From a virus (Duplodnaviria; Caudoviricetes), in the IMG/VR virus record IMGVR_UViG_3300008266_000068, positions 1-57,973 of that record: a stretch of DNA of 57,973 bases; one strand, given 5' to 3'. Numbering within the stretch: the stretch's first letter is position 1; every line of letters starts with the position of its first letter. Positions 36,372 through 57,928 of this stretch are shown in pieces. The notes below the pieces were generated by a model. It made no database searches, was not told where the DNA came from, and was given only the letters and a program-made list of their open reading frames with translations. Both the position numbers and the translations under genes were made by a program.

Positions 36372-37406
36372 TTATTTTTTAGTATCTACTTTTTTATCGT
36401 GAATATCTGCGTACTTTTTATAATAAGAAGAAACTTTTTCTTTATTAACTTTAAAACCACCATCAACGAATTCATCTGAAAAATTATTATTTATCCAATT
36501 ACCAGCTTTTAATTTTTCAACTTCATCTAACGATTCAACTCCTCCTAATCGTTTAACTGTATCACAGTGAGTAACAAAATTTTTCGCAGATTTTTTTAAA
36601 TTGATATGATGATCATTAATTAATTTATTATAATCATCGTGTGATATTTTTCCTGAAGCTAATTTTTCTGCGTATTCAGATATCTTTTTTGCACTTTCTT
36701 TTCTTTCATTATCGTGATGTTGAAGTGCATAATAATGATGCGCAATTTTTTCACCATTTGACATTGATTCGTAATCGTCAACCGATCCCGCTTTTAATTC
36801 ATCGTCGCGAATTATTTTTTTATCTGTTTTTGCTTTTTCCAATTCATCATCTTCAGATTTTCTTAACGAATTACTTGGACGTGGACTATCCCAATGTATT
36901 ACACCTTTTATTTCACCTCGTTGTTTCGCCTGTATTAAAGCTGCAGGTACTGGTTCATCACTTTGTTTATGAATTTCTGGACCTATATCGTTTTTACCGA
37001 TTTGATCGTTTATTTTTCTTAATTCTTCTTTCTTTTTTTCAATATCTTCATCTATTTTATTTAATTCATTTCCGTATTCATTGTGTTTACCATCAGCTTC
37101 CCATTTAGCATTCCACTTATCACCATGTTGTTGTTGATATTCACCAGCTTCAGAATTCATATCCCAATCAACTCTTTCACGATCTGCTTCAAGATCTTTA
37201 AGATCTTCAACTTTTTCACGTGCAATATCTGCTAACTCTGATATTCTTTTTTCTTGATTATTGTAATTTGTATTTCTATATACATAAACCCAATAACCTT
37301 TTTCGCCAATATATTTTCTAATATATTTTGTTTGTTTACTTTTTTCAAAATAACCACTTTCAATGGCTAATTTTTGCATCTGTAAAAATTGTGTACCGTA
37401 CAACAT
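36372..37406 (-). CDS. Putative internal head protein
   Basis: FEKS followed by KQTKYIRKYIGEKGYWVYVY, plus LRKS/LEKA sites; highly charged; lies in the head operon. Confidence 0.55.
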   Translation of the reverse strand: MLYGTQFLQMQKLAIESGYFEKSKQTKYIRKYIGEKGYWVYVYRNTNYNNQEKRISELADIAREKVEDLKDLEADRERVDWDMNSEAGEYQQQHGDKWNAKWEADGKHNEYGNELNKIDEDIEKKKEELRKINDQIGKNDIGPEIHKQSDEPVPAALIQAKQRGEIKGVIHWDSPRPSNSLRKSEDDELEKAKTDKKIIRDDELKAGSVDDYESMSNGEKIAHHYYALQHHDNERKESAKKISEYAEKLASGKISHDDYNKLINDHHINLKKSAKNFVTHCDTVKRLGGVESLDEVEKLKAGNWINNNFSDEFVDGGFKVNKEKVSSYYKKYADIHDKKVDTKK

Positions 37407-38736: not shown

Positions 38737-40224
38737 TTAAGCTACCAATGTCTTGGCGCAGTTAATAAACCTTACCATTTTTTTCGGAGCATAAAGATTC
38801 GGGGTTCCAAATAAGAAACAGATAAACTGCCTGCTCATTGAAATAACCGCTAAATCCAATTTTGATATCGGCGCCAATTGTTTAAATGAAACAACTTCAT
38901 CATTCCATTGTGTTAAGAATGCTTGTTCCATATCCGGTAAGAAATATCCAAGATCACGAACTACGTTAGCTGCTGCACCATCAAAACCTGTAATTGCATC
39001 ACCTTTTGAAACTGCAAATAAAGGATAAAATTCTAATCCAGTTGGAGTTGCGGCGGCAGTAGGTTTAGTCCTGTAAATTCTGTAACCTAAAGTAGGATAA
39101 GTGCCAGCACCATCTGTAACTGCTACGTCTACTGCTTTACCAGTAATAACAACCATTGCTGTTGCATCGATAGTTAAAGCAGATTCACCAAATTTACCAA
39201 TAGCTGAAACAGCGTAAAAATAATTAAGTGATCCAGGGTTATCAACAGCAGTTACATATTTACTGTTAGCGTCAGTTTGTAAAATTGATACACCACCTGT
39301 AGGAGCAGCAGGAGCTTTAGTATCAGGAAGTGATGCAGAATTTTTAGAACCCGGTGCTTTGATAAATTTATCACCAGTTAAATTAACATCGCCTACTGAT
39401 GTAGAAATAGCTTTTAATACAGTTCCCATTGTACCACTTACACCACCGCGGCCATCCTGCAAAATCCTTTGCTGATTGTAATAATCCTGAGATAAAGCGG
39501 AATTTACTTTTGGTGGAGCGAATAAATCGGTAGCAGTACCATAATGATCATCAACTATAATAGCACCTTTTTCAACGTCAGTTTGTTTTAATGATTTACC
39601 ACGTAAATCAACAACAACATCGGATTCAAAGTATGCTTTCCTGTTTGGCCAGAAATACTGTAAATTACCACCGGAACCGATCGACATATGCTGTTTATAC
39701 AAACCATTAAATTGATCTGGTACAATACCTGAATCGGCAAATGCAAGGTTGCGGTTAGCTAACCTTAAAATCCATTTCATTTTATTTTCAACTTCCTGGG
39801 TCATGGCTTGTACAAATGATTTAACCATTTGCGCCTGCATTGTTACAGAACCTGTAACCTGCATGTACTTCACCAATTCCGCCCTACGGATATATGAAGA
39901 ATCTTCAACTTCAGAAAGTTCACCTTCTGAATAAAATCCTCCTCTTTCAGAACCGTAACTGTACAACTGAACAAATTCTTCAACGGTGTTGTAAGCAACC
40001 ATTTTCGGAATTGAATTGAACATTTTAATATCCTGGGTACGGTATTCCAGATTTTTTAATGTTCTTTCTAACGATTCGGGTTTTAAAGGCTCCATTGTCA
40101 GGGAAAGGTTGGTCGTTTCACGGCCAGTTGTACTTCCTGCCTGCATGGCTTTCAACAGTTCTTCACCAGAAACATCTCCGGCGAACCCCTGTGAAAAATC
40201 ATCAAGTGATAAGTGGTTAAACAT
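38737..40224 (-). CDS. Major capsid protein (Herelleviridae-like, HK97 fold)
   Basis: ELLKAMQAG leader, LKPESLERTLK, AYNTVEEF, F.SEGEL, QFNGL, QLAPISKLDLA. Follows protease, has distinct higher-GC codon use and a strong downstream terminator. Confidence 0.9.
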   Translation of the reverse strand: MFNHLSLDDFSQGFAGDVSGEELLKAMQAGSTTGRETTNLSLTMEPLKPESLERTLKNLEYRTQDIKMFNSIPKMVAYNTVEEFVQLYSYGSERGGFYSEGELSEVEDSSYIRRAELVKYMQVTGSVTMQAQMVKSFVQAMTQEVENKMKWILRLANRNLAFADSGIVPDQFNGLYKQHMSIGSGGNLQYFWPNRKAYFESDVVVDLRGKSLKQTDVEKGAIIVDDHYGTATDLFAPPKVNSALSQDYYNQQRILQDGRGGVSGTMGTVLKAISTSVGDVNLTGDKFIKAPGSKNSASLPDTKAPAAPTGGVSILQTDANSKYVTAVDNPGSLNYFYAVSAIGKFGESALTIDATAMVVITGKAVDVAVTDGAGTYPTLGYRIYRTKPTAAATPTGLEFYPLFAVSKGDAITGFDGAAANVVRDLGYFLPDMEQAFLTQWNDEVVSFKQLAPISKLDLAVISMSRQFICFLFGTPNLYAPKKMVRFINCAKTLVA

Positions 40225-40294: not shown

Positions 40295-42007
40295 CTATGA
40301 TACTATATTTAATCCCTTACCTGTAAGATATTTATATGTAGTTCTTTCATCCAGCGTTTTAGCTATTTCAATTTCCTGAACTGATTTTTGCAACATTTGA
40401 TCAGTACCATAATTTGGCATTTCTTCGATACGTTGCATTAATGCTTCTCTATCTTCAGATTTTGATAAGCTATATACTTCACCTTCTGCTTTATTATTGT
40501 TTCCTTCATCTTTTGATTTTTCAAAACGTGGTACTTCCCTTACATTTTGAAACGCTTTTCTACCACCTTGAAATGTAGCAATTTTTTGCAGTAAATTTGA
40601 ATTACTTTCAACTGAAGCATCAAATGATTTTTGAATTGAACTAACTTTTTCAGTTTGCTGTTCTGCAATATCTGCGATAGCGGTAAATCGTGAACTTAAA
40701 AAATCAGATTGCTTAATAAAAATTTGTTCCATTCTATCAATAACGCTTGATAAAGATTTTTCCAACACTTCTTCAATAAGCAAAATATTCATTTCTTTTG
40801 ACTTCCCTAATTCTGAAGTATCACCACCCATATTTTTTGAATTCATTTCAGCCAATACGCTTTGCCATGCGCCTTGACATTCACTTAAAGAAAAACCTTT
40901 ACGAATTGAATCTTCGTAAAATGAATTTTCAACTTCAGGTGTTACACCGGCTTCAATAAAAGTTTCACATGATTTTTTTAATTCATCTTTTCTTTCACCT
41001 TCCTTAATTTGTTTCTCAACTTCTTCTTCAGTAAGTGAAGCGTTATCACCTGTTGTATTTATTTTTTCTTTAACACCACCTTCGTCTTTACCTTTTTCAA
41101 AAATCTTATTTACGTTTTCATCATCTTTTAAAAGATCTTCTGCAGATTGTGATTTACGTAAAATATCAAAAGACTTCTGTAACGCTGTTTCAGAAACTGT
41201 AGTTTTGTTATTAGTATTTGACATATCAGGATGAATTTTATTATTAACGGCTAAAATGAAATTATAAATATCTTTTGCTTTTGACAAATTTATATCAAAA
41301 TTCTTAATTATTTCACAATATACTTGTGATTTTGTTAAAGTTTTTAATCTACCATCTGTTTCAACCGATTCTAATGTAGTAGGAGCAAGAGATGAAGTAG
41401 TCATATCTTTCTCTAAATATCCACATTTTATACATTTACCATTTTGTAATTGTTCATCTGTACAATTTGGACAATATGTTTCGGGAGCAATATATAGTTC
41501 ATTATATTGACCTTTTACTATATTAACAAATGTATTTGAATTTTTAGGACAGTGTGTAATTGCAACACCAGTTATTAATGCTTTACGAACACGCTTTGGA
41601 TTTAATGGGTCTCTGTCAGTTGCTATACCTTCAATTGACCAACCTAACTGTCGCGTTGATTTATTTTTCTTTAACGTAATTGCTTTATTATAAGTATCAA
41701 TAGCTTTTTTATCGCCTTTAAATAATTTACCTCTTATAAAAAACTCATTGTTTTCAGTTACTCTTGCAGTCATAGGTTCACCTATAATAGCATCGGGATC
41801 GTCTTTTGCACGGTGATTCCAATTAATAACGCCTGATTCCATAAGCGGAGAAAAATCAAAACCTGAGGGATCAAGATATTCACCATCAAAATCTCTTCCA
41901 TTATCAGAAGCTATTCCTTCGATAATCATTTCACCATTTGATTCTTCTGTTCCTTTTACTATTTCAATTGGAACGAAAAAATTAAATTTATTTTTTTGAT
42001 CTATCAT
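40295..42007 (-). CDS. Prohead protease fused to a scaffold-like domain
   Basis: IEGIASD...DFDGE, INWNH (His), LGWSIEG (Ser), VAITHCPKN; then CPNC/CIKC and a long acidic helical tail. Confidence 0.85.
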   Translation of the reverse strand: MIDQKNKFNFFVPIEIVKGTEESNGEMIIEGIASDNGRDFDGEYLDPSGFDFSPLMESGVINWNHRAKDDPDAIIGEPMTARVTENNEFFIRGKLFKGDKKAIDTYNKAITLKKNKSTRQLGWSIEGIATDRDPLNPKRVRKALITGVAITHCPKNSNTFVNIVKGQYNELYIAPETYCPNCTDEQLQNGKCIKCGYLEKDMTTSSLAPTTLESVETDGRLKTLTKSQVYCEIIKNFDINLSKAKDIYNFILAVNNKIHPDMSNTNNKTTVSETALQKSFDILRKSQSAEDLLKDDENVNKIFEKGKDEGGVKEKINTTGDNASLTEEEVEKQIKEGERKDELKKSCETFIEAGVTPEVENSFYEDSIRKGFSLSECQGAWQSVLAEMNSKNMGGDTSELGKSKEMNILLIEEVLEKSLSSVIDRMEQIFIKQSDFLSSRFTAIADIAEQQTEKVSSIQKSFDASVESNSNLLQKIATFQGGRKAFQNVREVPRFEKSKDEGNNNKAEGEVYSLSKSEDREALMQRIEEMPNYGTDQMLQKSVQEIEIAKTLDERTTYKYLTGKGLNIVS

Positions 42008-43422: not shown

Positions 43423-46400
43423 TTAAATAATTTCTGTTACGACAAATGTTGAACCGACAAGCACACTTGATGCTGTACCGAAACTTGCGTTTTGTGCAAA
43501 CTGTACTGTAAGTGTTCCTGCTGCGTTGACTGTTATAGTTCCTTTGATTGTAAGTGATGCTGCTGTTACTGCTGTTACTGCTGAAACGGCAGTACCAAGA
43601 GCTGTACCTCTGCCTCCAATTCCTAAACTTGGATAAGCAGGGAAAGATTCGTAAATAATATTAGTTGCTGTTGCAGTCCCTGCGATAGCAAACTGTACGC
43701 CGCCAGCTACATTTGAGGTGGTATATAATATAGCCTCAAACCGATAGGTCTTACCAGCAACCAATGTCGCAGTAAGCCCTGTAATATCATCAAGAGTTGT
43801 GTTTGATGTTTTATCAAATTGTGACGTTACTCTGCTTGATTGAGTTTGTAATCCAGATGTACCCCATGAATATCCGTTGTAAAACACAGGTGCTTTGATT
43901 GTACTATCATATACTTGAAGTCCTGTTGCTGGTGTTACAATCGCATCCCTCTGTGCTGTTGTCTGGCGTGGCATCAACACCCCTTTATCAGTAGATGTCA
44001 AATCAAGTATTGCAGAAGCATTGGCTGTTGCAACACCTATACTCACCCTGCCTGCCGCTGTTGGCGCACCTGATGATGCTGTTTGACCTCCATAAATATT
44101 TGTACCATAAATAAGGTTTCCTATATTCAACAAAGCTGAATCATTTGCAGTCTGTCCATCAACAAAATTGCCTATGATGATATTTTTATGGGCTGCTCTG
44201 TGAATATTGCCAGTACTTGTACCTATCATAACATTATAGTTTCCAATCGTGTCCCAATATTGGGCGTTTCGCCCCATAGCTATATTGTAAGCACCATATA
44301 AAGATTTTGTCTTTGCAAATGTGCCTACTGCAACATTGTAATTTCCTGTTAAATGTTCATACATAGCCTCTTTACCCATAACTGTATTACCTCCTGATGA
44401 AGTAGCTTTTCTAAAAGCAACAAAACCAACAATGGTATTGTCTGAATTTGCATTTCTTCCATTAGCATAACCACCTATGGCGACATTGCCACTATGTATA
44501 ACATTAGAAGCCAATGCTGAATCCCCTATGGCTGTGTTTCCCGTGCCTGTTGTTGTTGAACCTAATGCATCTGCGCCTAATGCTGTATTCCAAACACCTG
44601 TTGCTACATCTGCTGCTCTATATCCTAATGAAGTAATCCTGTTGTTGCTGTTAATAGTTCCACTCTTTTCATTATTTACTCTGAATACAAATGCTCTGTT
44701 ATCTGTTGTGCCTATAAAATTAATTGAAGAATCAGTGCTTACATTTCCAAGTGTGCTCCATCCACTACTTGAACTGATTGCACCCCAACCGCTTGACCTG
44801 TAGAAATTAAAAGTGCTATCAGTTGTGTTGTAAACCATCAAACCAATTGCAGGTGAAACAATAGCATCTCTTTCAGGAGTTGTTAATCGTGGTATCAACA
44901 AACCTCTGCTTGTTGTTTTCATTTCAAGCAATGCAGAACTGTTTGGTATTGAAGTGCCAATACCAACATTTGTGTTTTGTGATGAATCACCAAGTATTAC
45001 AGTATTTGATTGTGCAACTTTTGTGAGTGCTCCAATAGCAGTTGCGTTTTTTAGGTTTGTTGTTGTAGGTACGGTTGCCAATACGCCTGTATAATAACCA
45101 AGAAAATTCATTAAAGAATCTTTGTACCGTGTGTTATTAGCACCTGACCACGAACCTATAAAATTGCTGCCAAACGAAGCTCTATCTCTCCACCCTGCCG
45201 CTTGACCTATCCATGTGTTATGATTGGAATTTGCAACAACTGCAGTAGCAGTAGCACCAACTCCATCACCTGTTATTGTAACTGTAGGCACAGTCCATGA
45301 ACCATGTGTATAATTAGTTGCTGCTCTATCAACGTAACCTATACCTGGGAATGTAATAGTTGCACCTGTAATCACACCCAAACTAATAATAGGTGTTGCA
45401 GTAGCAACCGCTTCATAAAGTGCCGGCATATTTGGTTGTCCGTATGTTTTTGGTGGGTCAACTGTTATTGTAGCAGTAGTATATCCACTACCTCCATTTG
45501 TGATAATTATAGTGTCAATAATGCCTGCTGCAAATCCACCAGCAGATGTACCTAACGCCGTATTATAACTACCATTTCCAATAGTCCTCATCGCATCTTT
45601 TCCAATAGCCGTATTGTTAGTTACCTTTATCCCTCTTTCCATCGCACCTGCACCAACCGAAGTTACGCCCTGACCTGCTACTGTCATAAAGTTTGCCAAC
45701 GAGCCTACGGTAGTTACACGACCATAATCTGATGCACTACCATACTGCAGATTAATAGCAGCTAAATTACCTATAACAGTAGTTTGCCCAGGAGTAAGCC
45801 ATGCAGAATCGGGGTCTAACTTATTTCCTATATTGGTTCCAGCGTATCCGCCTATAGCTGTAAGGCTATATCCGCTTGCCGATAATGTAGGATTATCTAA
45901 ATCTTTCTTAACCATTGCCTGCCCAGCTTTATAGCCGATAGTAACAAGCGATTGCCCAGGAAAACCAAACTCTGTAGGAGCTAAAGGCGCTTGAGTTAGC
46001 CAGCTATGCGGCTGTCCAATATACCATGCACTATTATCCCATATTCTACCCTGTAAAGCGTGTACAGAATCTACAGTACCGATGAAATTTGTATTATTTG
46101 TTCCTGTGTTTCCTGTATTATACCAAAAATTTGTACCAGTAAATACTTTACGCCATGCAGTTCCATTATACGAACAAATCATTAACGAATCTGTATTCCA
46201 AATTAATAAACCTGATAAAGGTGAAACTATAGCATTCATTTGCGCTGTAGTCAATCGCGGTATTAATATTCCTTTTGTAGTTGACGTTACATCTAAAATA
46301 GAAGATGAATTTGGCGCTAAAAAACTACTACCTGTATTTCCTATTCTTAATTTTCCATTAATAAGAAATACACCATCTCTATCACCACCTGATTTAACAC

Positions 46401-46503
46401 CACCTACTTTAGTAGTATCATATGCTAAATTACCTACTGATTTCTGCGCAATAATTTTATTGCAAAAACTAAACAACAGTAATAATAAAAGAATTTTTTT
46501 CAT
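43423..46503 (-). CDS. Fibre/adhesin-like beta-helix protein with an N-terminal signal-peptide-like sequence
   Basis: MKKILLLLLLFSFCNKIIAQ leader. Three copies of S.ILD.TST.KG.L.PR.TT.QR.AIV.P..GL.VY. NTAIG/NTALG/NVAIG YadA-head-like repeats. Confidence 0.7.
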   Translation of the reverse strand: MKKILLLLLLFSFCNKIIAQKSVGNLAYDTTKVGGVKSGGDRDGVFLINGKLRIGNTGSSFLAPNSSSILDVTSTTKGILIPRLTTAQMNAIVSPLSGLLIWNTDSLMICSYNGTAWRKVFTGTNFWYNTGNTGTNNTNFIGTVDSVHALQGRIWDNSAWYIGQPHSWLTQAPLAPTEFGFPGQSLVTIGYKAGQAMVKKDLDNPTLSASGYSLTAIGGYAGTNIGNKLDPDSAWLTPGQTTVIGNLAAINLQYGSASDYGRVTTVGSLANFMTVAGQGVTSVGAGAMERGIKVTNNTAIGKDAMRTIGNGSYNTALGTSAGGFAAGIIDTIIITNGGSGYTTATITVDPPKTYGQPNMPALYEAVATATPIISLGVITGATITFPGIGYVDRAATNYTHGSWTVPTVTITGDGVGATATAVVANSNHNTWIGQAAGWRDRASFGSNFIGSWSGANNTRYKDSLMNFLGYYTGVLATVPTTTNLKNATAIGALTKVAQSNTVILGDSSQNTNVGIGTSIPNSSALLEMKTTSRGLLIPRLTTPERDAIVSPAIGLMVYNTTDSTFNFYRSSGWGAISSSSGWSTLGNVSTDSSINFIGTTDNRAFVFRVNNEKSGTINSNNRITSLGYRAADVATGVWNTALGADALGSTTTGTGNTAIGDSALASNVIHSGNVAIGGYANGRNANSDNTIVGFVAFRKATSSGGNTVMGKEAMYEHLTGNYNVAVGTFAKTKSLYGAYNIAMGRNAQYWDTIGNYNVMIGTSTGNIHRAAHKNIIIGNFVDGQTANDSALLNIGNLIYGTNIYGGQTASSGAPTAAGRVSIGVATANASAILDLTSTDKGVLMPRQTTAQRDAIVTPATGLQVYDSTIKAPVFYNGYSWGTSGLQTQSSRVTSQFDKTSNTTLDDITGLTATLVAGKTYRFEAILYTTSNVAGGVQFAIAGTATATNIIYESFPAYPSLGIGGRGTALGTAVSAVTAVTAASLTIKGTITVNAAGTLTVQFAQNASFGTASSVLVGSTFVVTEII

Positions 46504-47144: not shown

Positions 47145-50100
47145 TTATTTTTCACCGGCTTCATATACCTTACCACTTTCAGGAACTTTAAACTTCGGAA
47201 TTATTATTCCAGTTTTAACATTATCGTAATCAGAAATTTGTAAATCTTTTATTTGTGGAACATTAACTGCAGTTACGCTTTTGTTTCTTTCTATTAAATC
47301 CAACAAAGGTAAAGTGTATTGTTTGTCGTTATATTTAAACGATATTTTAATATCTTTACTATTAGTAAACATATTTGAAACTGTAGTTAACGTATCTGAT
47401 ATAAATTTCTTTGTAGAAGATTCGTTTATAGAAGAAATAAACTGATTTACATTTCTTTCTCTATTTTCAAATGTATGTAATTTTTCGTGTTTTGTTTTTA
47501 ATTTTTCTAATCCTTTATTATAAACTTTATCTTTTGATTCTATTTTACTTAAAAAATCAATATCTGTTGGTAAAGTTTTCGTACCATATAATTCAGAAAA
47601 ACCATTTAAAGTATTTGCATGAAAAACTGATTCAATTACATCTGCATATTTTTCAGGTATATCAATTCTCTTTGCTGTACGTTTATCATAATATACTCCA
47701 TCTTTTTTAACAGAATAAATTAATTTATCTTTTAAACCAGCATATATTGTTGAATTTTTTAATTCATTTTTTCTATACTCAAAATCATCGTCTTCTTCAA
47801 TTTTTTTATGATACCTTTGAGTATATGGAACACCTTTGCTTGATACTTTTTTCACTGCTTCAACTGTTAACGCTTTTTCAAATTCGTTTAAAACATCGTA
47901 TTCATTATATTCAATACCGAAGAAGTCGTTTGCTTTATTCAATTCATCAGGTATATAATTAAAATACGTTGTTTCATTTCCTGCAGATTTTTTTAATTTG
48001 TTGTAAAAATACCAATCAGTAACTAAATTTAAAGATTTTTTAGCGCGTGTATAAGCCACATACCTGAGATTAGCTTCCTGTGTTGCCTGAAATTCATTTT
48101 TAGCACGTGTTCCATGTAACATATCATCTTCAACAATATAGACTCTATCAGCTTCTAATCCCTTCGCTTTATGAACTGACGATAACTGAATTCCACCTTT
48201 CTGTGATTCTGAAAATATTTTACTAATATTTGCAACCATTTCATTAGGTGTTTTTGAATCATCTCGTAATGCTTCATAACATTCTCTACGTTCTGTCAAA
48301 TTAATAACCGGATTTGATTCCAATGCTTGTTCATGCGTTAATCCACGTAATACCTGTTTGTTAATTATTTTACCAATTTCTAAATTAATTTTAAGATACA
48401 TATTTTTAAACCCTTCAGGTGAATCCATTAATTTTTTACCTACATATCTTTGAATTTCATTTATCATTGTTTCACCTATATCACGACCTTTTATTGTTGC
48501 TGCCTTTTTTTCACCAATAAATTTCATACATAAAGAAATCAAAGGCGCGTTATTTCTACACAACACCATATCGCCTGCTTTAATATCGTTTATAGATGAT
48601 TCTAAATTTACTTCACCATCTTCTGCTTTTTCCCAATAATCAATATCAACGCCTGTTGTTTGCCTAACGTAATTTATTATTGATTTACCACAACGATATG
48701 AAACTGAAAGTGGAAGACGTTTTGTATTTTCAGTATTAGCTATATTTTCAAATGATTCATGATCACTTCCCATAAAACCAAATATAGCCTGTCGTGGATC
48801 ACCTACAGCAACCATTCTACCACCAATCTTTGGATCGAACATTTTTCTAACTAATTTTAATTGCGCTTTATTTAAATCCTGACATTCGTCAACAAATACA
48901 AAATCATATTTTTGTACTCCAAATTTATCATACGCTGCAGGTAAATAAATCATGTCTTCATAATCTATCATTTCAGTTCTTGCATCCAACATTTTCATAC
49001 AAGTTCTTACATACTGTGCTTCATTTGAAATTAATTCAACACCTTGTCTACGTACTAATTCAGTTAATAAAGCTGGATCAGCGGTTAAATTTTGCTGCCC
49101 TGTTGAAACTAATTTATAAACATTAGCCATAAATTCGATCTTATCGCCATCTTCTAATTTCTGTTCAGTAGCAATTCGATTAACAAATTCATTAAGTACT
49201 AATTTTTTCTTATCTTTTTCAACCTTTATATATTTACCATAAACTTTCTTTATACAATTAAATCCAAATGCATGCAATGTTGAGCAATCAACTTCCTTAG
49301 GTAATCTTTCACTTAATTCAGTTTGAATAAGTTTTGAAAACGCTACAAAAGCTATTTTTTTATTTTTAGGAATAAACTCCATACTATTAACTATAGTAGT
49401 AGTTTTTCCAGTACCAGCTTTTGCATCTACCGCGCAATTACCTTCACCGCTTTGAATAAAATCAAAAATACCTTGTTGCTGTGGAGAAGGTGTTTGTTTA
49501 GGTTTTATTGAAATTTCACCTTCAATATTTAATGAACCATCTGAAGCAGTTGAAGGTGTATTAACATCAGCAGTTTCTTTTTCCAATTCTTTAACTTCTT
49601 CAATTTGTTTTTCTTCTTTACTTATAAGATGTTTGTAATCACTATGAACATGATGTTCATTGCCAACTATAGGTACCCACCCTGCTGCAGTTTTTACATT
49701 TTTCTTAGCCTTATCTAATGAACCAATTGGAAATGCTTTTTTACCTTTTTCAAATTCATCATCGATATTACCTTTTTCCATTACTTCACATATCGTATCT
49801 TTATTATCAATTAATGTTTGTATAAATAAATCGTCATTGTCATCGTTTCTATCCATATTATACATCACAAAACTTATAGCTTGTAGTGAACCGTTAAGTG
49901 ATATTTCTGGAGTAACTGTTATTAATTGTTTTGGTGAAATTATTTCATCAAATTTTTCTTCTATAATTCCAGTTAATCTTTCTTTTAAATCTAAAATAAA
50001 AAATTCGCTTGGTATTTCATTTAAATTATTAATACTTACTAACTGATAATCATGTTGTTCTTCATGATCTAATACAATATGATCTTCAATTACAAAATTT

Positions 50101-53100
50101 TCATTTAATAAAATGTAGAAGTAAAATGATTTTGTTTTATCTGTATTTTCTATTACTTTAGCAAATCTTACATCTTCTTCATTAAAGACAATATTTATTT
50201 CTTCCAACGTTTCACGAATTGCTGCACAAATAGGTGTTTCATTTAATTCTATTTTACCACCCGGTAATGCTAATTTACCGGGCATAAAATCATCGTCTTT
50301 ACTTCTCTTTACAAGTAATACTCTTAAATCATTTGTTACAACTATTAAATCTGCGTATTGTGGTTTTTCTTTTTTAAATTTATTTAGTTTTATAATATTA
50401 CCTATAGCATCTGTAAAAGGCTTAAAAAACTTTGATATTGCTGCGAATCCTGACGATTCTCCGACTTTTTCGTCTTCGCCAAATAGTTCATCGATAGCTT
50501 TTTTTAATTCATCAGATTCATAAAGTTTGCGCATCTGACTTAAAATATCTTTATTCGACGAAATGATATTATGACTTATAATATTTCTGTCGTAAAATAA
50601 ACCTGAAACTTCAGTTTCTACCTTTTCAATTTTTTGCGCCTTAGGCATTTTTGAATCCTTGAAGTTATGTGCCATCATTGTACATATAACATCACCAGGG
50701 TAATTTTCAATTAATTTATCGTATGATCTTTTACTAATTACAACAGCGGGTTGATTCCTTTGTGCAAATCTGTTAGCTTCAAGAATATTGTCTTGATTAT
50801 ATGCTGGCTTATTTTCAATGCTTTGATATGTACCATTTCCATTGTCAACTAAAAACGCAGGTGAACCTACATCACTTGATCTATATGAACGTAATAAATT
50901 TCTTGTTTCATCAGGTGCATAAGGTTTTTCAAATTTTACAGCCCAGGGACTTACTGATAATACTTTTAAATCCAATTCATCTTTAAAATTGTTTCTTATA
51001 AAATCCTTATGAACAAGATCGTATATTTTCTGACTGTCTTTTAATAATGAATGTGTACCATTCATTTCATCAAGTTTTGTATTTTGATACTCTAACGCAC
51101 TTTGTTTTGTAACAAATTTTTGTGAATGTGTTTTTATAATATCGCTATCACCAGTATCAAGATAACTATCTATACTTTTTTTATTTAAATGATAAAAAGA
51201 ATAATACTCTGCAAAAGCTTCTTCAGGTGAAACATGAGCATAATCAGTAATTAATTTTATACCACTGTTGCTACCATTTCTTGGTATTCTTATATCATCG
51301 CCTGTTGCGTTATCTTTTGTTCTTTCTTCTTTATAACTCCATCCACATTGATTTGCAAATTTTCTATATTCTTGACTTCCATATCTATCAAGTTTTTTAG
51401 AAACAGCATGTCCCATTTCATGAACAACTACAGAAGCGAAATGATCTGTCGCGTCTATGTTTGATACTTTAGAAGTTGCTCGTAAACAATCTGGTGAAAA
51501 CTGTATTTTTTTATTATTAGGATCGTAAAACGCGTAAGTCTTCGTATATTCATTATCATATTGTATTGTAGTTAAATTTGAATTATTTACAATATGACCT
51601 TTTGGCAAAGTATCTATTAACTTTTCAATTGTTTCTAATGCGTTAATATTTGATTTATTCCAATCACCTGTTAATTGTTTTTTATATTTTGAATTAAAAC
51701 GCATTTGAAGTACTGGTTTAAAATCCAATTTCGCTTTTTCAAAATAGTCTTTATTTATCAAATCAGTAAATATAATATCTAAATCGTATTTATTTACTGG
51801 AAATTTATTTGCATTTACATAACTTTGAAAATGATTCTTCGCTTCCTCTTCTGAAAAACCAACTTGTTTGAATTTCTTTAAAAAGTTACCTTTTATTTTT
51901 TCAGCATCTTTTATATTTGCCAAACTTATAGTTGGAACATTATAACGAGGTACAGATACAGAACCATTATCGCCAAAACCTAAAGTAACTTCAATATTTT
52001 GTCCTTGAAAAAACGTTAATAATTTTTTACCTGTTAATGAAAATCTTTTAAAAGCTGAATTAGTAGCAGCAGTAGGTTTTGGGTGTTTACCTATTATCGA
52101 TAATAAAGAAGCAAATCTTTGTACATGTAAATCATTATCTACAGTATTTTTAACAAAAAATCTACTCAATGAATTTGTAGCAACTGCTGTAAGAGCTAAT
52201 GACGATATACCTGACGTTTCGTTTGCATCTACAATTAAACTATCACGAGTACCTAAATATTTCATTAGTTCTTTCATTATCTGATTTGATCCTGTTACAG
52301 TTAATGCAACACCATCGTAATCATAATTACTTTTTTGTGTATCTGCAACAACTGATAATACACCTTTGACGTTATTTATTTCAACATCGTAATCGTTTGT
52401 TAATTCTTCATTAGTTGGTACGTTATCTTCAACGACTGTTTTTTCTAACTTCTTTACAAGATCGCCGTAAAATATATGCGCATCTGAAAATATATCTACA
52501 TCAAAACGTTTTATTGATTCTTTTTCTAAATACGTTTTTATAGCATCGTTATTATGATTTAAATAAAATTCAAAATCTTTATCAATGCTATCAGTTTGTG
52601 TTTGATATAATATCCAATTACTACTGAAATTTTCAACACAAAATTGTTTTAATTCATTTACCTTATCAACAACTTCAAAATATTTATCGGCTTTTGAATT
52701 TCTTAAATCTGCAAGTTCACCTCTAAACTGCTTGTATTTTTCTTCTAATTCTGGTGAAAGGTTTTTAGCTTCAAGTAAATGTTCATAATTTGCTTGTATA
52801 ACATCTCCTAAATTAGTAAATAATGAAATATCTACTTCTTTAGAAAGTTTGTCTTTATATTTTTCCCTTACTTCTTTTTTAATTGCTTTTACAATATCAT
52901 CTTTACCATCAACTGCACCTACTGCTGCTAAACGATCTTGTATTTCAATATACATTTGTTGCCATATAGACATCGCACGTTTTGTAAATTCATTTGTAAA
53001 TGAATATTTTAACGCACCATAAAATCCTTCGTATTGTTTGAAATCAGTAGGTTTGAAAGGACCATTTTGTTCACCTTCAACTTTTTTAAAGTTTGTTATT

Positions 53101-53330
53101 ATTTCATCAAGAAAAACTTCACCATTTACAGGTTCTTTTATTCTACAAAATTCTTGTGATAATTTATTTAAGTGATTACCTAATTTTTCTAAAATTGGAA
53201 AACTTGGAAGATCATACCAACCATTATGATAATTTGTAGCCTCATGTAATTTTATTACCATTCCACGCTGCCAACTTCTAATTGTACCGACTGGGCAAAC
53301 TCTTGGCCGTTCTTCTTTTGAAATCGACAT
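47145..53330 (-). CDS. Polyvalent protein: zincin-like metallopeptidase + Nudix hydrolase + SF1 (UvrD-like) helicase
   Basis: HEMGH (51408-51422) with downstream EEAFAE; Nudix box GGKIELNETPICAAIRETLEE; AKAGTGKTT, VDECQD, VGDPRQAI, SYRC, HKAKGLE, YVAYTRAK. Confidence 0.85.
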   Translation of the reverse strand: MSISKEERPRVCPVGTIRSWQRGMVIKLHEATNYHNGWYDLPSFPILEKLGNHLNKLSQEFCRIKEPVNGEVFLDEIITNFKKVEGEQNGPFKPTDFKQYEGFYGALKYSFTNEFTKRAMSIWQQMYIEIQDRLAAVGAVDGKDDIVKAIKKEVREKYKDKLSKEVDISLFTNLGDVIQANYEHLLEAKNLSPELEEKYKQFRGELADLRNSKADKYFEVVDKVNELKQFCVENFSSNWILYQTQTDSIDKDFEFYLNHNNDAIKTYLEKESIKRFDVDIFSDAHIFYGDLVKKLEKTVVEDNVPTNEELTNDYDVEINNVKGVLSVVADTQKSNYDYDGVALTVTGSNQIMKELMKYLGTRDSLIVDANETSGISSLALTAVATNSLSRFFVKNTVDNDLHVQRFASLLSIIGKHPKPTAATNSAFKRFSLTGKKLLTFFQGQNIEVTLGFGDNGSVSVPRYNVPTISLANIKDAEKIKGNFLKKFKQVGFSEEEAKNHFQSYVNANKFPVNKYDLDIIFTDLINKDYFEKAKLDFKPVLQMRFNSKYKKQLTGDWNKSNINALETIEKLIDTLPKGHIVNNSNLTTIQYDNEYTKTYAFYDPNNKKIQFSPDCLRATSKVSNIDATDHFASVVVHEMGHAVSKKLDRYGSQEYRKFANQCGWSYKEERTKDNATGDDIRIPRNGSNSGIKLITDYAHVSPEEAFAEYYSFYHLNKKSIDSYLDTGDSDIIKTHSQKFVTKQSALEYQNTKLDEMNGTHSLLKDSQKIYDLVHKDFIRNNFKDELDLKVLSVSPWAVKFEKPYAPDETRNLLRSYRSSDVGSPAFLVDNGNGTYQSIENKPAYNQDNILEANRFAQRNQPAVVISKRSYDKLIENYPGDVICTMMAHNFKDSKMPKAQKIEKVETEVSGLFYDRNIISHNIISSNKDILSQMRKLYESDELKKAIDELFGEDEKVGESSGFAAISKFFKPFTDAIGNIIKLNKFKKEKPQYADLIVVTNDLRVLLVKRSKDDDFMPGKLALPGGKIELNETPICAAIRETLEEINIVFNEEDVRFAKVIENTDKTKSFYFYILLNENFVIEDHIVLDHEEQHDYQLVSINNLNEIPSEFFILDLKERLTGIIEEKFDEIISPKQLITVTPEISLNGSLQAISFVMYNMDRNDDNDDLFIQTLIDNKDTICEVMEKGNIDDEFEKGKKAFPIGSLDKAKKNVKTAAGWVPIVGNEHHVHSDYKHLISKEEKQIEEVKELEKETADVNTPSTASDGSLNIEGEISIKPKQTPSPQQQGIFDFIQSGEGNCAVDAKAGTGKTTTIVNSMEFIPKNKKIAFVAFSKLIQTELSERLPKEVDCSTLHAFGFNCIKKVYGKYIKVEKDKKKLVLNEFVNRIATEQKLEDGDKIEFMANVYKLVSTGQQNLTADPALLTELVRRQGVELISNEAQYVRTCMKMLDARTEMIDYEDMIYLPAAYDKFGVQKYDFVFVDECQDLNKAQLKLVRKMFDPKIGGRMVAVGDPRQAIFGFMGSDHESFENIANTENTKRLPLSVSYRCGKSIINYVRQTTGVDIDYWEKAEDGEVNLESSINDIKAGDMVLCRNNAPLISLCMKFIGEKKAATIKGRDIGETMINEIQRYVGKKLMDSPEGFKNMYLKINLEIGKIINKQVLRGLTHEQALESNPVINLTERRECYEALRDDSKTPNEMVANISKIFSESQKGGIQLSSVHKAKGLEADRVYIVEDDMLHGTRAKNEFQATQEANLRYVAYTRAKKSLNLVTDWYFYNKLKKSAGNETTYFNYIPDELNKANDFFGIEYNEYDVLNEFEKALTVEAVKKVSSKGVPYTQRYHKKIEEDDDFEYRKNELKNSTIYAGLKDKLIYSVKKDGVYYDKRTAKRIDIPEKYADVIESVFHANTLNGFSELYGTKTLPTDIDFLSKIESKDKVYNKGLEKLKTKHEKLHTFENRERNVNQFISSINESSTKKFISDTLTTVSNMFTNSKDIKISFKYNDKQYTLPLLDLIERNKSVTAVNVPQIKDLQISDYDNVKTGIIIPKFKVPESGKVYEAGEK

Positions 53331-53338
53331 GTGATAAT

Positions 53339-53518
53339 TTATTTATGTTCTACCAATACTGATAATTTACGTTTGTTACATTCATCTATCGCCGCGTCTA
53401 TTAATTCATCTTTGCCGCATTCAATATCCTCAGTTACAGTAACAGAAATAATTTTTTGTAGTTCTTCATCAGACATTTTTTCTACAAATTCTTTAATATT
53501 TATTTTATTATGTGACAT
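53339..53518 (-). CDS. Small acidic protein (59 aa, below ORF-track cutoff)
   Basis: Read manually: MSHNKINIKEFVEKMSDEELQKIISVTVTEDIECGKDELIDAAIDECNKRKLSVLVEHK*; fills the gap and ends 8 nt before the polyvalent gene. Confidence 0.6.
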   Translation of the reverse strand: MSHNKINIKEFVEKMSDEELQKIISVTVTEDIECGKDELIDAAIDECNKRKLSVLVEHK

Positions 53519-53548: not shown

Positions 53549-55072
53549 TTAAGCGATATCTACAAGAACTGCAGCTTGTTTTTCGAATTTTTGTTTATCC
53601 AAAACACCACCATTCATTCTTTCATTAACTTTTGCAAACATTGCAAGGTTTGAAAGTGTTCTACCGTTTACTTTATCGATATCAAGGTTTTTTCTGTATT
53701 TAGTAAGAAAATCAATAACCGCTTGTGTATGTTCAGGTTTAACTCCCATATCATTTCCTTCCTTATCTCTGAACTTCATTATGTTTTTAATTTTATTCAA
53801 CTTATGAATTGTTTCATCCATAGTCATTGATAAATCAATTGCACGTGCTCTTGAATTAACAATAGGTTGAGGTAAATCTTTACGCCTTAAATTTGTAATG
53901 AATATTACTTCACCTGAAAACTTAAATGATTTAGGTGGATATACTTTTTTACCGTCTTCAGTTATTGATATTGGTTTTGGATTTGGGTACCTTATTGTAT
54001 TAGTACCTGAAGTATCTAAAGCACCTTTTAACATATTACCTGCATCTTCATCATCCCACATATTATCGCAGTCATCAAATATAACAAGCTTATCTTTATT
54101 TGTGTACATTAAATTATACATATCAGAAGGTGAAGTTGAACCTGTAATTGTTACAGCGTCGTATTCATCTGCATCTAAATGTAATTCTTCATCGTAAACA
54201 CGTTTGTTATTTCTATCCAACGATTTTAATAACTCCCATGTTTTACCAACACCGCCTGTACCATAAGCAATTAAAGCTTTAGGACGACCTGTAATCATAA
54301 TTGCATCCAAACATAAATCGTATGCATCCCAACGATCTTCGTAACCAACACCTAATGTTTCTGCAATTTTCTTTTTCTGAAAACGATTTATTTTATCGTA
54401 ATCTTTTTGCGAAACTTCTTCCTTAATATCGTTGATATCGAAGTCTTCAGACATTACGTCAACTTTACCATCTTTATCAGTAGGTACATCAGAAGGTAAA
54501 GATGAACCAGTAGGTTTTACAGATTTAAATCCTGAAAAATCATGTTCACGTAATTCCTGTTTTTGAAGATGCGTTGCGTATTTATAATCGCCCAATAAAT
54601 CACCGTGCACATTTGGATCATATATTCCCATAGACATTAAATCACGATGTTGTTGTGCGCGATTTACGTTTTTCTTATTTTCAATTATTGATTGTATTTT
54701 TTCTTCATCGCTATTACCATCAATATCTTTTTCACCTTTATATTTACCACCAAAATTATGAGCAGCATCAATTGTATTATCAACCCAACGAAATGTTTGA
54801 TATGTACTACCATCTTTTTTCTTTGCAATAATTTGTTTCTTTACAAGTTTTGAAGTGTCCAACATACCTTTCACTAAATAGCTTTTAAAACCTAAATCGA
54901 TATTGTTTAAAACAGATTTTTTAACTTCCTGTTTAACCTCTTCAACTTGTTTTTCTTCTTCAACACTTTTTTCAAGTTTAGATGCTTTATCACCTTTTTG
55001 TATTACTTTATCAATATTTTTATTTTTTGCATATTGATTCAGTAAATTAATTTTGCGTTGATTAGCTGACAT
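53549..55072 (-). CDS. AAA-family ATPase with long N-terminal leader
   Basis: YGTGGVGKT (Walker A), VIFDDCD (Walker B), IFITN (sensor 1), SRA (Arg finger). Confidence 0.8.
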   Translation of the reverse strand: MSANQRKINLLNQYAKNKNIDKVIQKGDKASKLEKSVEEEKQVEEVKQEVKKSVLNNIDLGFKSYLVKGMLDTSKLVKKQIIAKKKDGSTYQTFRWVDNTIDAAHNFGGKYKGEKDIDGNSDEEKIQSIIENKKNVNRAQQHRDLMSMGIYDPNVHGDLLGDYKYATHLQKQELREHDFSGFKSVKPTGSSLPSDVPTDKDGKVDVMSEDFDINDIKEEVSQKDYDKINRFQKKKIAETLGVGYEDRWDAYDLCLDAIMITGRPKALIAYGTGGVGKTWELLKSLDRNNKRVYDEELHLDADEYDAVTITGSTSPSDMYNLMYTNKDKLVIFDDCDNMWDDEDAGNMLKGALDTSGTNTIRYPNPKPISITEDGKKVYPPKSFKFSGEVIFITNLRRKDLPQPIVNSRARAIDLSMTMDETIHKLNKIKNIMKFRDKEGNDMGVKPEHTQAVIDFLTKYRKNLDIDKVNGRTLSNLAMFAKVNERMNGGVLDKQKFEKQAAVLVDIA

Positions 55073-57379: not shown

Positions 57380-57928
57380 TTATTTATCAATTAAATTAAT
57401 TGTTGTTTGTCCAACACCTTTTTCAGTTTTATACATAAACCCTTCTCCGTCTTCATCTATATTTAATACTTTAAATTGTTCACCGTTTATAAAAAACATA
57501 TCACCAATTTCAACTTTTTCACCTCTGTATTTTGTTTTTAATTCAGTTTCACTTGGTACATAATTATGATCTTTTTTTAACTCCTGTAAATCATTATCAA
57601 TATTTAATTGAATATAATGTCGATCGTTTTTAGAAGCATGATGTAAATCATAACGTAATTTTTTTATATGTGATATCAACCAGTTTTTAGATGTTTCTTC
57701 ATTTCTTTCCTTTCTACTACTAATTTCTTCGTGATCTTTTTTAACCTTTGGTATTTTTTCTTTTTTTTCTTTTACAACTTTTTCTTTCGGTTCAGCAACA
57801 ACTTTGTTTTTATTTAATTCTTTGTCTACTAAATTTTCGTTACCTATTACAGGTACCCATCCATTTTCTGTTTTTACATTTTTGCCAGATTTATCTAGCA
57901 TACCGATTGGAAAAGATTTTTTAGACAT
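57380..57928 (-). CDS. Putative internal head protein with N-terminal tag shared with the polyvalent protein
   Basis: N-terminal KKSFPIGMLDKSGKNVKTENGWVPVIGNE; Lys/Glu-rich linker; C-terminal SH3/KOW-like beta region. Confidence 0.65.
   Translation of the reverse strand: MSKKSFPIGMLDKSGKNVKTENGWVPVIGNENLVDKELNKNKVVAEPKEKVVKEKKEKIPKVKKDHEEISSRKERNEETSKNWLISHIKKLRYDLHHASKNDRHYIQLNIDNDLQELKKDHNYVPSETELKTKYRGEKVEIGDMFFINGEQFKVLNIDEDGEGFMYKTEKGVGQTTINLIDK

Follow-up and report, generated by a model that had tools for sequence, protein, structure and literature searches.

A 2061-residue polyvalent protein of an uncultured phage with candidate capsid-protease sites at its predicted domain joints

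Polyvalent proteins were defined by Iyer et al. (2017; PMC5512222). In the available text of that paper, they combine many unrelated enzyme domains, are encoded by late or virion genes beside MuF, and have as a hub domain a zincin-like metallopeptidase that is proposed to process the chains; some are fused to assemblin-like peptidases. The same text gives DdrB of phage P1 as a processed protein and the virion RNA polymerase of N4 as an uncut one. P0001, a 2061-amino-acid (aa) protein encoded in the virus record IMGVR_UViG_3300008266_000068 (57,973 bases, analyzed whole and called the window below), resembles polyvalent proteins in its unrelated enzyme domains, its zincin-like hub, its place among late and virion genes beside MuF, and the processing proposed for it. 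A cleavable polyvalent protein is not a new idea, because processing was already proposed by Iyer et al. The combination of N-terminal hairpin, zincin, Nudix, and UvrD helicase found in P0001 is not described in the available text of PMC5512222, in which NUDIX occurs once and UvrD is mentioned only for actinomycete plasmids. Nor does that text mention a fixed AAA+ partner gene or prohead-protease motifs in linkers, both of which are features of P0001. In contrast to the polyvalent zincin hub, the zincin of P0001 reaches the threshold of no Pfam metallopeptidase model. The zincin clade of P0001, or its short hairpin tags, may already be listed in the FTP supplement of that paper.

Phage cargo that is cut during maturation offers a second comparison. 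According to the available accounts, the internal proteins and Alt of T4 and the ejection proteins of the phiKZ/SPN3US type share a protease consensus with capsid and scaffold. The prohead proteases of these phages cut after Glu, whereas the predicted cut in P0001 is after Lys. T4 cargo loses a short N-terminal targeting peptide, whereas the hairpin tags that lie behind the sites in P0001 would remain on the products. P0001 also differs from T4 and SPN3US cargo in having several enzymes in one chain. The Dar proteins of P1 (DarB and DdrB) are like the present proposal in being large head-packaged enzymes, one of them helicase containing, and DdrB is processed (PMC5512222, available text); however, no sequence relation to P0001 was found, and P0001 has no methylase or ParB domain by Pfam. 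The N4 virion RNA polymerase is, like P0001, very large and equipped with a zincin domain, but the available text describes it as packaged uncut, and P0001 has no polymerase domain. Phages with SPO1/Twort-like capsids (9vel, 5lii, and 9row) share with the window a homologous capsid protein with an aligned K↓S or K↓A about 24 to 25 residues in (the arrow marks a cut or candidate cut). Unlike the window, the cultured ones found have no homologue of the N-domain plus zincin of P0001 (50,697 records). A search of the literature on virion Nudix enzymes gave nothing usable.

The domain combination, the fixed AAA+ partner, and the absence of the family from cultured phages are new here. The comparative evidence for the capsid protease consensus in linkers and the layout of a site followed by a tag are new as well. 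We lean towards the reading that P0001 is a capsid-packaged polyvalent protein that the prohead protease would divide at the joints into four or five proteins. The joints carry the motif of the protease that would mature the capsid of this phage, indicating that P0001 is probably packaged in the capsid and separated there into its enzymes. The features of P0001, all on the minus strand, are as follows (pLDDT, predicted local distance difference test; phi, hydrophobic residue; 4/4, kept in all four close homologues).

47145..53330, minus strand: P0001, whole open reading frame (ORF), 2061 aa, 235.7 kDa, open throughout
51735..53330, minus strand: N-domain, aa 1-532, helical at 9-300, alpha/beta insert at 305-415, low confidence beyond
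53211..53294, minus strand: N-terminal hairpin tag, aa 13-40, PVGTIRSW..NGW, inside the folded N-domain
51732..51743, minus strand: candidate site FEK532↓A533, N-domain/zincin joint, in a segment of pLDDT <50 (528-534), 4/4
50469..51734, minus strand: zincin module, aa 533-954, with HEMGH at 637-641 (51408-51422) and SPEEAFAE at 701-708 (51207-51230)
50496..50513, minus strand: candidate site DELKK944↓A945, end of the zincin module, block pLDDT 62, 4/4
49941..50378, minus strand: Nudix domain, aa 985-1130 (Pfam NUDIX at 992-1103)
49743..49757, minus strand: candidate site EFEK1195↓G1196, Nudix/helicase joint, in a segment of pLDDT <50, 4/4
49656..49745, minus strand: internal hairpin tag, aa 1196-1225 (GKKAFPIGSLDK..GW), three short strands in the model
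47994..49496, minus strand: SF1A UvrD/Rep-like helicase, aa 1279-1779, by Pfam, PHROG, and fold match
47796..47990, minus strand: low-confidence linker, aa 1781-1845, with candidate sites LKK1781↓S, LNK1799↓A, and FEK1819↓A, then a degenerate VKKVSSKGVPYTQRY motif
47148..47873, minus strand: orphan C-terminal domain, aa 1820-2061 (242 aa), found in no relative among the matches listed

Two AlphaFold models were made, of residues 1-1195 (96 alignment rows, mean pLDDT 82) and 1150-2061 (31 rows, mean pLDDT 71). In these models, phi-x-K-[SAG] motifs appear at every predicted domain joint of P0001. The conservation of the sites was scored over four close homologues, 58 to 62% identical, with the P0001 of the window counted among the four. 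Sites 532, 944, and 1195 were kept in 4/4, site 1799 in 3/4, and site 1781 in 4/4 if a 2-residue shift in the alignment is allowed. The homology of P0001 to its relatives begins at about 530 to 540, near FEK532↓A533, and a disordered stretch in the model (951-987) directly follows the DELKK944↓A945 block. The tighter motif E-phi-x-K-[SAG] was enriched in P0001 (4 versus 0.89 expected). All four tight motifs and 8/13 of the loose phi-x-K-[SAG] motifs fall in 10-residue blocks of mean pLDDT <70; such blocks make up 29% of the residues, and P was 0.014 for the placement of the 8/13.

The original prediction, drawn from the sequence alone, had named nine motifs, and all were found where it put them: PVGTIRSW at aa 13, HEMGH at 637, EEAFAE at 703, DELKKA at 940 (base 50513), VMEKG at 1183 (49784), EFEKG at 1192 (49757), LKKS at 1779 (47996), LNKA at 1797 (47942), and FEKA at 1817 (47882). 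LNKA and FEKA each occur once more in P0001, at aa 1486 and 530. Its list of cleavage sites missed YFEK532↓A533, and two of the sites that it gave, VMEK1186↓G and FEK1819↓A, are present only in the window (1/4 each). Its domain order was confirmed, the ORF being open on the minus strand and the Pfam, PHROG, and fold matches being in agreement.

The sites had also been called capsid-like, and this description held up: the motif equals the inferred maturation site of the capsid protein of the window and fills its scaffold. The features of the head module that bear on this are the following.

40147..40161, minus strand: capsid protein site EELLK25↓A26, by alignment with phi812 EDVVK24↓S25 and SPO1 DALNK↓A
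40295..42007, minus strand: prohead protease (aa 3-159) fused to a scaffold-like region, PHROG 1028, E 3.4e-38
53549..55072, minus strand: AAA+-like P-loop protein, 507 aa, the conserved upstream partner, with site K68 and a LVKKQIIAKKKDGSTYQTFRW tag
57380..57928, minus strand: 182-aa protein whose N-terminus carries the internal tag of P0001

The capsid protein is of the SPO1/Twort type (E 5.6e-49 to SPO1 gp6.1, 9vel). It matches 720 phage records, mostly from Staphylococcus, Bacillus, and Enterococcus phages, and the closest cultured phage is Chryseobacterium phage MA9V-3, with a capsid protein 56.7% identical. The mature capsid chain of phi812 (9row, 439 aa) starts 24 residues into the 463-aa 5lii, at S25 after EDVVK24, and K24↓S25 aligns exactly with EELLK25↓A26 of the window and with DALNK↓A of SPO1. 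The literature yielded nothing usable on the capsid cleavage site of phi812 or SPO1. At the capsid arm site, hydrophobic-x-K↓A was present in 8/8 capsid proteins of related contigs and in MA9V-3. The scaffolds were loaded with phi-x-K-[SAG], with 17 motifs in the scaffold region of the window (2.9 expected), 21 in the MA9V-3 scaffold (2.7 expected), and 2.6 to 7.3 times the expectation in all eight related scaffolds. FEK[SAG] occurred seven times in the ORFs of the window (0.9 expected), every time in a head-module protein. The capsid site, the scaffolds, and the FEK[SAG] counts indicate that the capsid-like site is a real, clade-wide protease signature.

The protease ORF (window 40295-42007, minus strand) itself has a conserved N-terminal site at aa 13-19 (PIEIVK↓G; PLDFEK↓G in MA9V-3 and PLEIEK↓S in L092), which may be an autocleavage site. 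A PDB sequence search with the protease-scaffold protein gave no match.

An exhaustive search with residues 1-1195 of P0001 gave 776 matches at E <= 0.001, and the family was analyzed from the best 150. Two parts are constant among the matches listed, an N-terminal hairpin (M..PVGTIRxWxxGxVIKAH...GW) and the zincin module (about 533-954 of P0001), which ends in S-[DE]-E-L-x-K-A. HExGH and EEAFAE were present together in 52 sequences; the end motif pattern matched 45 of them, and the seven without a match were dropped. Thirteen of the 45 end less than 80 aa past the end motif, seven of them within 1 to 13 aa, and 32 continue. The 60 aa after the zincin module of these 32 relatives contained 39 phi-x-K-[SAG] motifs versus 11.1 expected, with at least one motif in 28/32. 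The expectation came from shuffling each linker 1,000 times; 0/1000 shuffles reached 39, but the linkers are related to one another and the shuffles ignore this kinship. Four of the 32 sequences are P0001 and its close kin, and the rest are representatives of 50%-identity clusters. The control phi-x-K-[other] was below expectation (29 versus 53.7), and the other controls were near it (reversed motif, 10 versus 11.3; Arg at P1, 3 versus 3.4; Asp/Glu at P1, 17 versus 15.4). The claim that P0001 would be cleavable in its linkers is supported by comparison, through the match to the capsid site, the motif-filled scaffold, the low-confidence segments, and the linker enrichment in relatives.

A Pfam scan covered 43 of the longer proteins among the matches listed. 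NUDIX followed the zincin in 25/43, and the other partners were Kinase-PolyVal (P0068), ART-PolyVal (P0084), SNF2 (P0148), ADPrib_exo_Tox (P0037), and DUF5661; an Acb1-like domain gave a single weak match below the cut-off. Judged by these matches, the zincin family shares domains with the polyvalent domain network. P0001 itself, with zincin motifs, NUDIX, and UvrD helicase, has at least two unrelated catalytic domains in one polypeptide, as a polyvalent protein should. The polyvalent label of the original prediction is borne out by these three unrelated enzyme domains, the head module, and the relatives with Kinase-PolyVal, ART-PolyVal, ADP-ribosyltransferase, and SNF2 domains.

The internal tag was also recovered. 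Residues 1196-1248 of P0001 match the N-terminus of ORF 57380..57928 with 53% identity (E 1.3e-10), and a piece starting at G1196 (GKKAFPIGSLDK..., GKKAFPIG) would mirror the free N-terminus of this 182-aa protein (MSKKSFPIGMLDK..., MSKKSFPIG). A site followed after 4 to 7 residues by a short hairpin tag was found in head-module proteins of MA9V-3 and in several family members, for example, DELEK↓GGKRAFIGEVRTF..GW, FLEK↓SKTKGYTGEIREW, DIEK↓GGKAYIGEKRTW, and IFEK↓ARAGVYENTSENRKLGRVG. Of the MA9V-3 tags detected by pattern, all four lie no more than 16 aa behind a site, with the limit that the regular expressions miss many copies and give no tag census. The hairpin tags matched no Pfam family at E up to 1, and tblastn with the 182-aa tag protein gave no match in the 50,697 phage records.

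In the AAA+ partner, the Lys of hydrophobic-x-K↓[AGS] (K68), just before LVKKxVxVKxKDGxxYxxxRWV, is invariant in 15/15 sequences. All 17 related loci with upstream DNA have an AAA+ homologue upstream of the zincin gene (14 distinct loci, given three near-duplicate pairs; L100, of 927 bases, and seven weak matches, L102-L108, were left out). MuF, SPO1-type protease/scaffold, and capsid genes are near the zincin gene in those loci. The P0001 gene is a phage gene among packaging and virion genes (MuF-like, AAA+, protease, and capsid). L092 and L095 encode the AAA+ protein and a prohead protease domain as one fusion, which would place the AAA+ partner inside the prohead. A complex prediction of the AAA+ protein (aa 235-507) with the N-domain (1-300) and zincin scored 0.02 against a mark of 0.32 and counts neither way. 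A PDB sequence search with the AAA+ protein returned only noise.

Some joints of P0001 are gene boundaries elsewhere. P0018 and P0019 (1194 aa each), which consist of N-domain, zincin, and Nudix, end at P0001 residue ~1183, about 12 aa short of K1195↓G. Cultured relatives encode the helicase separately, in the early region, and it stands alone in MA9V-3. This phage also has a separate 235-aa Nudix gene (XQU63093.1) directly upstream of the prohead protease, ending in GIEK↓SNISIGEVKEFGG..GWKY, and has no zincin gene, yet the AAA+ protein (XQU63102.1), tags, and Nudix are kept; its tagged proteins include ones of 148 and 520 aa. An annotated transfer-messenger RNA (tmRNA) gene lies beside its stand-alone helicase region (L086:11522-11880, PV245944.1).

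From the anatomy, motif statistics, conservation, and synteny, we infer packaging, cleavage, and ejection, and the targets of the enzymes are a matter of inference throughout. P0001 would be the polyvalent cargo of a myovirus with an SPO1/Twort-like head, made late together with the head genes, and would enter the procapsid alongside its conserved AAA+ neighbor and other tagged proteins. There the exposed joints would be cut by the prohead protease, whose predicted motif is [acidic]-hydrophobic-x-K↓S/A/G, on the C-terminal side of the Lys. Cuts are expected at K532↓A, K944↓A, K1195↓G, and K1781↓S, with K1799↓A and K1819↓A in addition. They would release an N-domain of ~61 kDa, a zincin peptidase of ~48 kDa, a Nudix hydrolase of ~29 kDa, a tag-led UvrD-like helicase of ~66 kDa, and an orphan domain of ~28 kDa (computed masses for the predicted cuts, 60.9, 47.5, 28.9, 66.2, 4.5, and 27.9 kDa). 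The fragments would be ejected together with the DNA and take effect early in the host.

Three other explanations were weighed against cutting by the prohead protease. P0001 could process itself, its own zincin acting on the joints either within the capsid or once injected; Iyer et al. proposed such a role for the metallopeptidase domains of polyvalent proteins. The proposal is in print, with P1 DdrB as an example in the available text of PMC5512222, and the linker motifs are always downstream of a zincin module. HE.GH and SPEEAFAE (the HExxH helix and the downstream Glu ligand, EEAFAE 703-708) are invariant in 12/12 aligned rows, indicating from sequence that the zincin looks active. However, capsid protein and scaffold bear this motif also in MA9V-3, which by tblastn with residues 1-954 and by a reading of its head region has no zincin gene, and the AAA+ partner bears an invariant site with no zincin of its own. 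Self-processing is weakened because the motif also serves a phage that has no zincin, and we consider it quite improbable, the least probable of the three. P0001 could instead be a late cytoplasmic factor for assembly or DNA handling that is degraded or left behind. The AAA+ protein would then serve as a chaperone and the zincin as a protease in maturation, and the helicase and Nudix would handle DNA or nucleotides while the genome is packaged. The AAA+/zincin pairing is reminiscent of ATP-dependent proteases, and the AAA+-protease fusion of L092 and L095 and the early-region helicase of cultured relatives also fit such a role. A role of this kind nevertheless seems improbable to us, as ADP-ribosyltransferase, Kinase-PolyVal, ART-PolyVal, and SNF2 domains, all typical of injected effectors, are found in relatives, and MA9V-3 and Herelleviridae build the same kind of head without the genes in question.

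The protein could also be packaged and delivered whole, its motifs being parts of tags or terminal helices that act as docking elements. This is unlikely in our estimation, although several observations speak for it. The N4 virion RNA polymerase is a large zincin-bearing cargo that can stay uncut (PMC5512222, available text), the ELKKA motif ends many short relatives, and site and tag in MA9V-3 could be one unit. The variable spacing from Lys to tag (4 to 7 residues), the identity of the motif with the capsid maturation site, and its presence in linkers that have no tag argue for cleavage instead. Besides the N4 precedent and the kinship of the linkers, a number of points weigh against cleavage by the prohead protease. 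Over the whole of P0001, phi-x-K-[SAG] was not enriched (13 versus 10.1 expected). Only 5/13 loose motifs fall in segments of pLDDT <50 (17% of residues; P = 0.06), and another 5/13 lie inside well-folded parts (148, 577, 897, 1488, and 1721). Every site named in the original prediction, and YFEK532↓A533 with them, lies in a segment or block of pLDDT <70. At 1781-1845 and in the C-domain, the cause of the low pLDDT may be a thin alignment instead of true disorder. DELKK↓A lies within a terminal helix and many relatives end just past it, indicating that it is possibly a structural or binding motif, and site plus tag may be one conserved element rather than a cleavage site. The capsid protein itself contains six copies of the motif, which indicates that the motif alone is no predictor of cutting, and the start of the phi812 chain in 9row is taken as the maturation cut from deposited sequences. 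Finally, tblastn with residues 1-954 (N-domain plus zincin) gave no match in the 50,697 phage records, indicating that no cultured phage has the gene. Phages with the zincin gene probably infect Bacteroidota.

A wider proposal is more tentative, and we give it a minor chance of being correct. The AAA+, zincin, and Nudix genes with a tag 4 to 7 residues behind a site would be an undescribed cargo system of a large uncultured clade with SPO1-like heads. Rather than stripping off a targeting peptide as in T4, cleavage would expose at each new N-terminus a tag that holds, sorts, or orders the release of the enzyme, and the 2061-aa gene would be an "operon in one protein" from which the capsid protease frees the enzymes in equal amounts. 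If the joints of P0001 are cut by the prohead protease, capsid cargo could be read from sequence across a whole uncultured phage clade, by looking for acidic-hydrophobic-x-K↓S/A/G in a disordered stretch. Such cutting would be a second way of unpacking polyvalent proteins, besides self-cleaving zincins, and the short tags might serve to load capsids with foreign proteins. The recurrent zincin/Nudix/AAA+ trio points to an early host-takeover function outside any cultured phage model.

The domains of P0001 follow in the order N-terminal PVGT..GW hairpin and helical domain, zincin, Nudix, tag, UvrD/Rep helicase, and orphan C-terminal domain. The N-terminal hairpin is modeled with strands at 17-20, 23-27, and 38-40 (pLDDT ~95), and its motif is also N-terminal in relatives. 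The N-domain matched no known family, and its alpha/beta insert (305-415) is missing from the distant relative L039. Pfam matches on the zincin region were all below threshold (Aspzincin_M35, 18.3 bits versus a cut-off of 30; Zn_peptidase_2, 14.2 bits), and an Atlas search pointed to ATLF/M90/Mx1-type zincins at 0.89-0.90, which is a lead only. With both models, the fold searches returned so many Nudix and helicase matches that the N-domain, zincin, and C-domain were barely probed.

The Nudix domain is well supported by Pfam (E 1.3e-12, 48.3 bits versus a cut-off of 21.1). Its Nudix box (GX5EX7REUXEEXGU, at 1025-1047) keeps E, RE, and EE and has N for the final G. The model matches MutT 3grn (Z 18.2; root mean square deviation, 2.1; 134 residues), and the PDB matches range over MutT, Ap4A, ADP-ribose, and RNA pyrophosphohydrolases. 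All NCBIfam equivalogs were far below their cut-offs, and the domain is, as far as its sequence tells, generic MutT-like. The original prediction, whose interpretation is partly supported overall, also suggested that the Nudix could destroy nucleotide alarm signals and that the peptidase could cut host defense proteins; both roles are conjectural. For the helicase, UvrD-helicase, AAA_19, and UvrD_C were matched at 1292-1769 (E 1.4e-20 to 6.8e-10), with scores of 74.6 and 39.3 bits, each over its cut-off. PHROG 1967, "DNA helicase," was matched at 7e-92, the Walker motifs are intact (AKAGTGKTT and FVDECQD), and the model matches E. coli Rep 1uaa (Z 24.1, 399 residues). The C-terminal domain (1820-2061) had no relatives among proteins of 133 to 424 aa or in 18 related loci; Atlas gave no usable match, and Pfam gave noise only.

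The window is an incomplete linear virus record (CheckV completeness, 58; GC content, ~0.24 to 0.40), and its minus strand carries nearly all genes. In the reading direction, the 182-aa protein, a MuF-like protein (HPHCRCS motif; only 17.7 bits in Pfam), the 507-aa AAA+-like P-loop protein, and a 59-aa ORF precede P0001. It is followed by a 194-aa protein, a 1026-aa fiber-like protein, three membrane proteins, the prohead protease-scaffold, the major capsid protein (PHROG 752, 6.5e-66), and then sheath and baseplate genes. Scans around the P0001 gene for promoters (43 versus 55.3 expected) and terminators (1 versus 1.9 expected) were at or below chance. The 59-aa ORF (window 53339-53518, minus strand) separates the AAA+ gene from P0001, with 8 bases from its end to the P0001 start, and is kept in L005 (63 aa, 2254-2445).

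The fusion in L092 and L095 (L092:5571-8867 and L095:5571-8867) is a 1098-aa protein of prohead protease, three GHTKSGKPIY-like motifs, and AAA+ domain. Its sequence further repeats the N-terminal arm of the capsid protein, site included, as VEFKK↓AMEAGSVTGTE... Elsewhere in the head module, Nudix is fused N-terminally to AAA+ or is a separate gene directly upstream (L093:6245-8716, L096:6693-8939, and L087:281-1114). Two AAA+ homologues have intein-like insertions at Walker A (L097:5803-8301 and L099:6114-8822), and among helicase homologues of 834 to 1133 aa (proteins P0005-P0016), Pfam detects homing-endonuclease and intein domains.

The 1026-aa fiber-like protein (window 43423-46503, minus strand) lies in a GC-richer stretch (0.40 versus ~0.28) and has a signal-peptide-like N-terminus and three copies of G.L.PR.TT..RDAIV.P..GL.VYN. 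Its homologues vary greatly, from 688 aa in L006 to 1459 aa in MA9V-3. An acidic, Lys-rich protein of 344 aa encoded downstream of the capsid gene (window 36372-37406, minus strand) carries YFEK22↓S close to the N-terminus and DELEK↓A at residues 188-192 and may be a further substrate of the protease.

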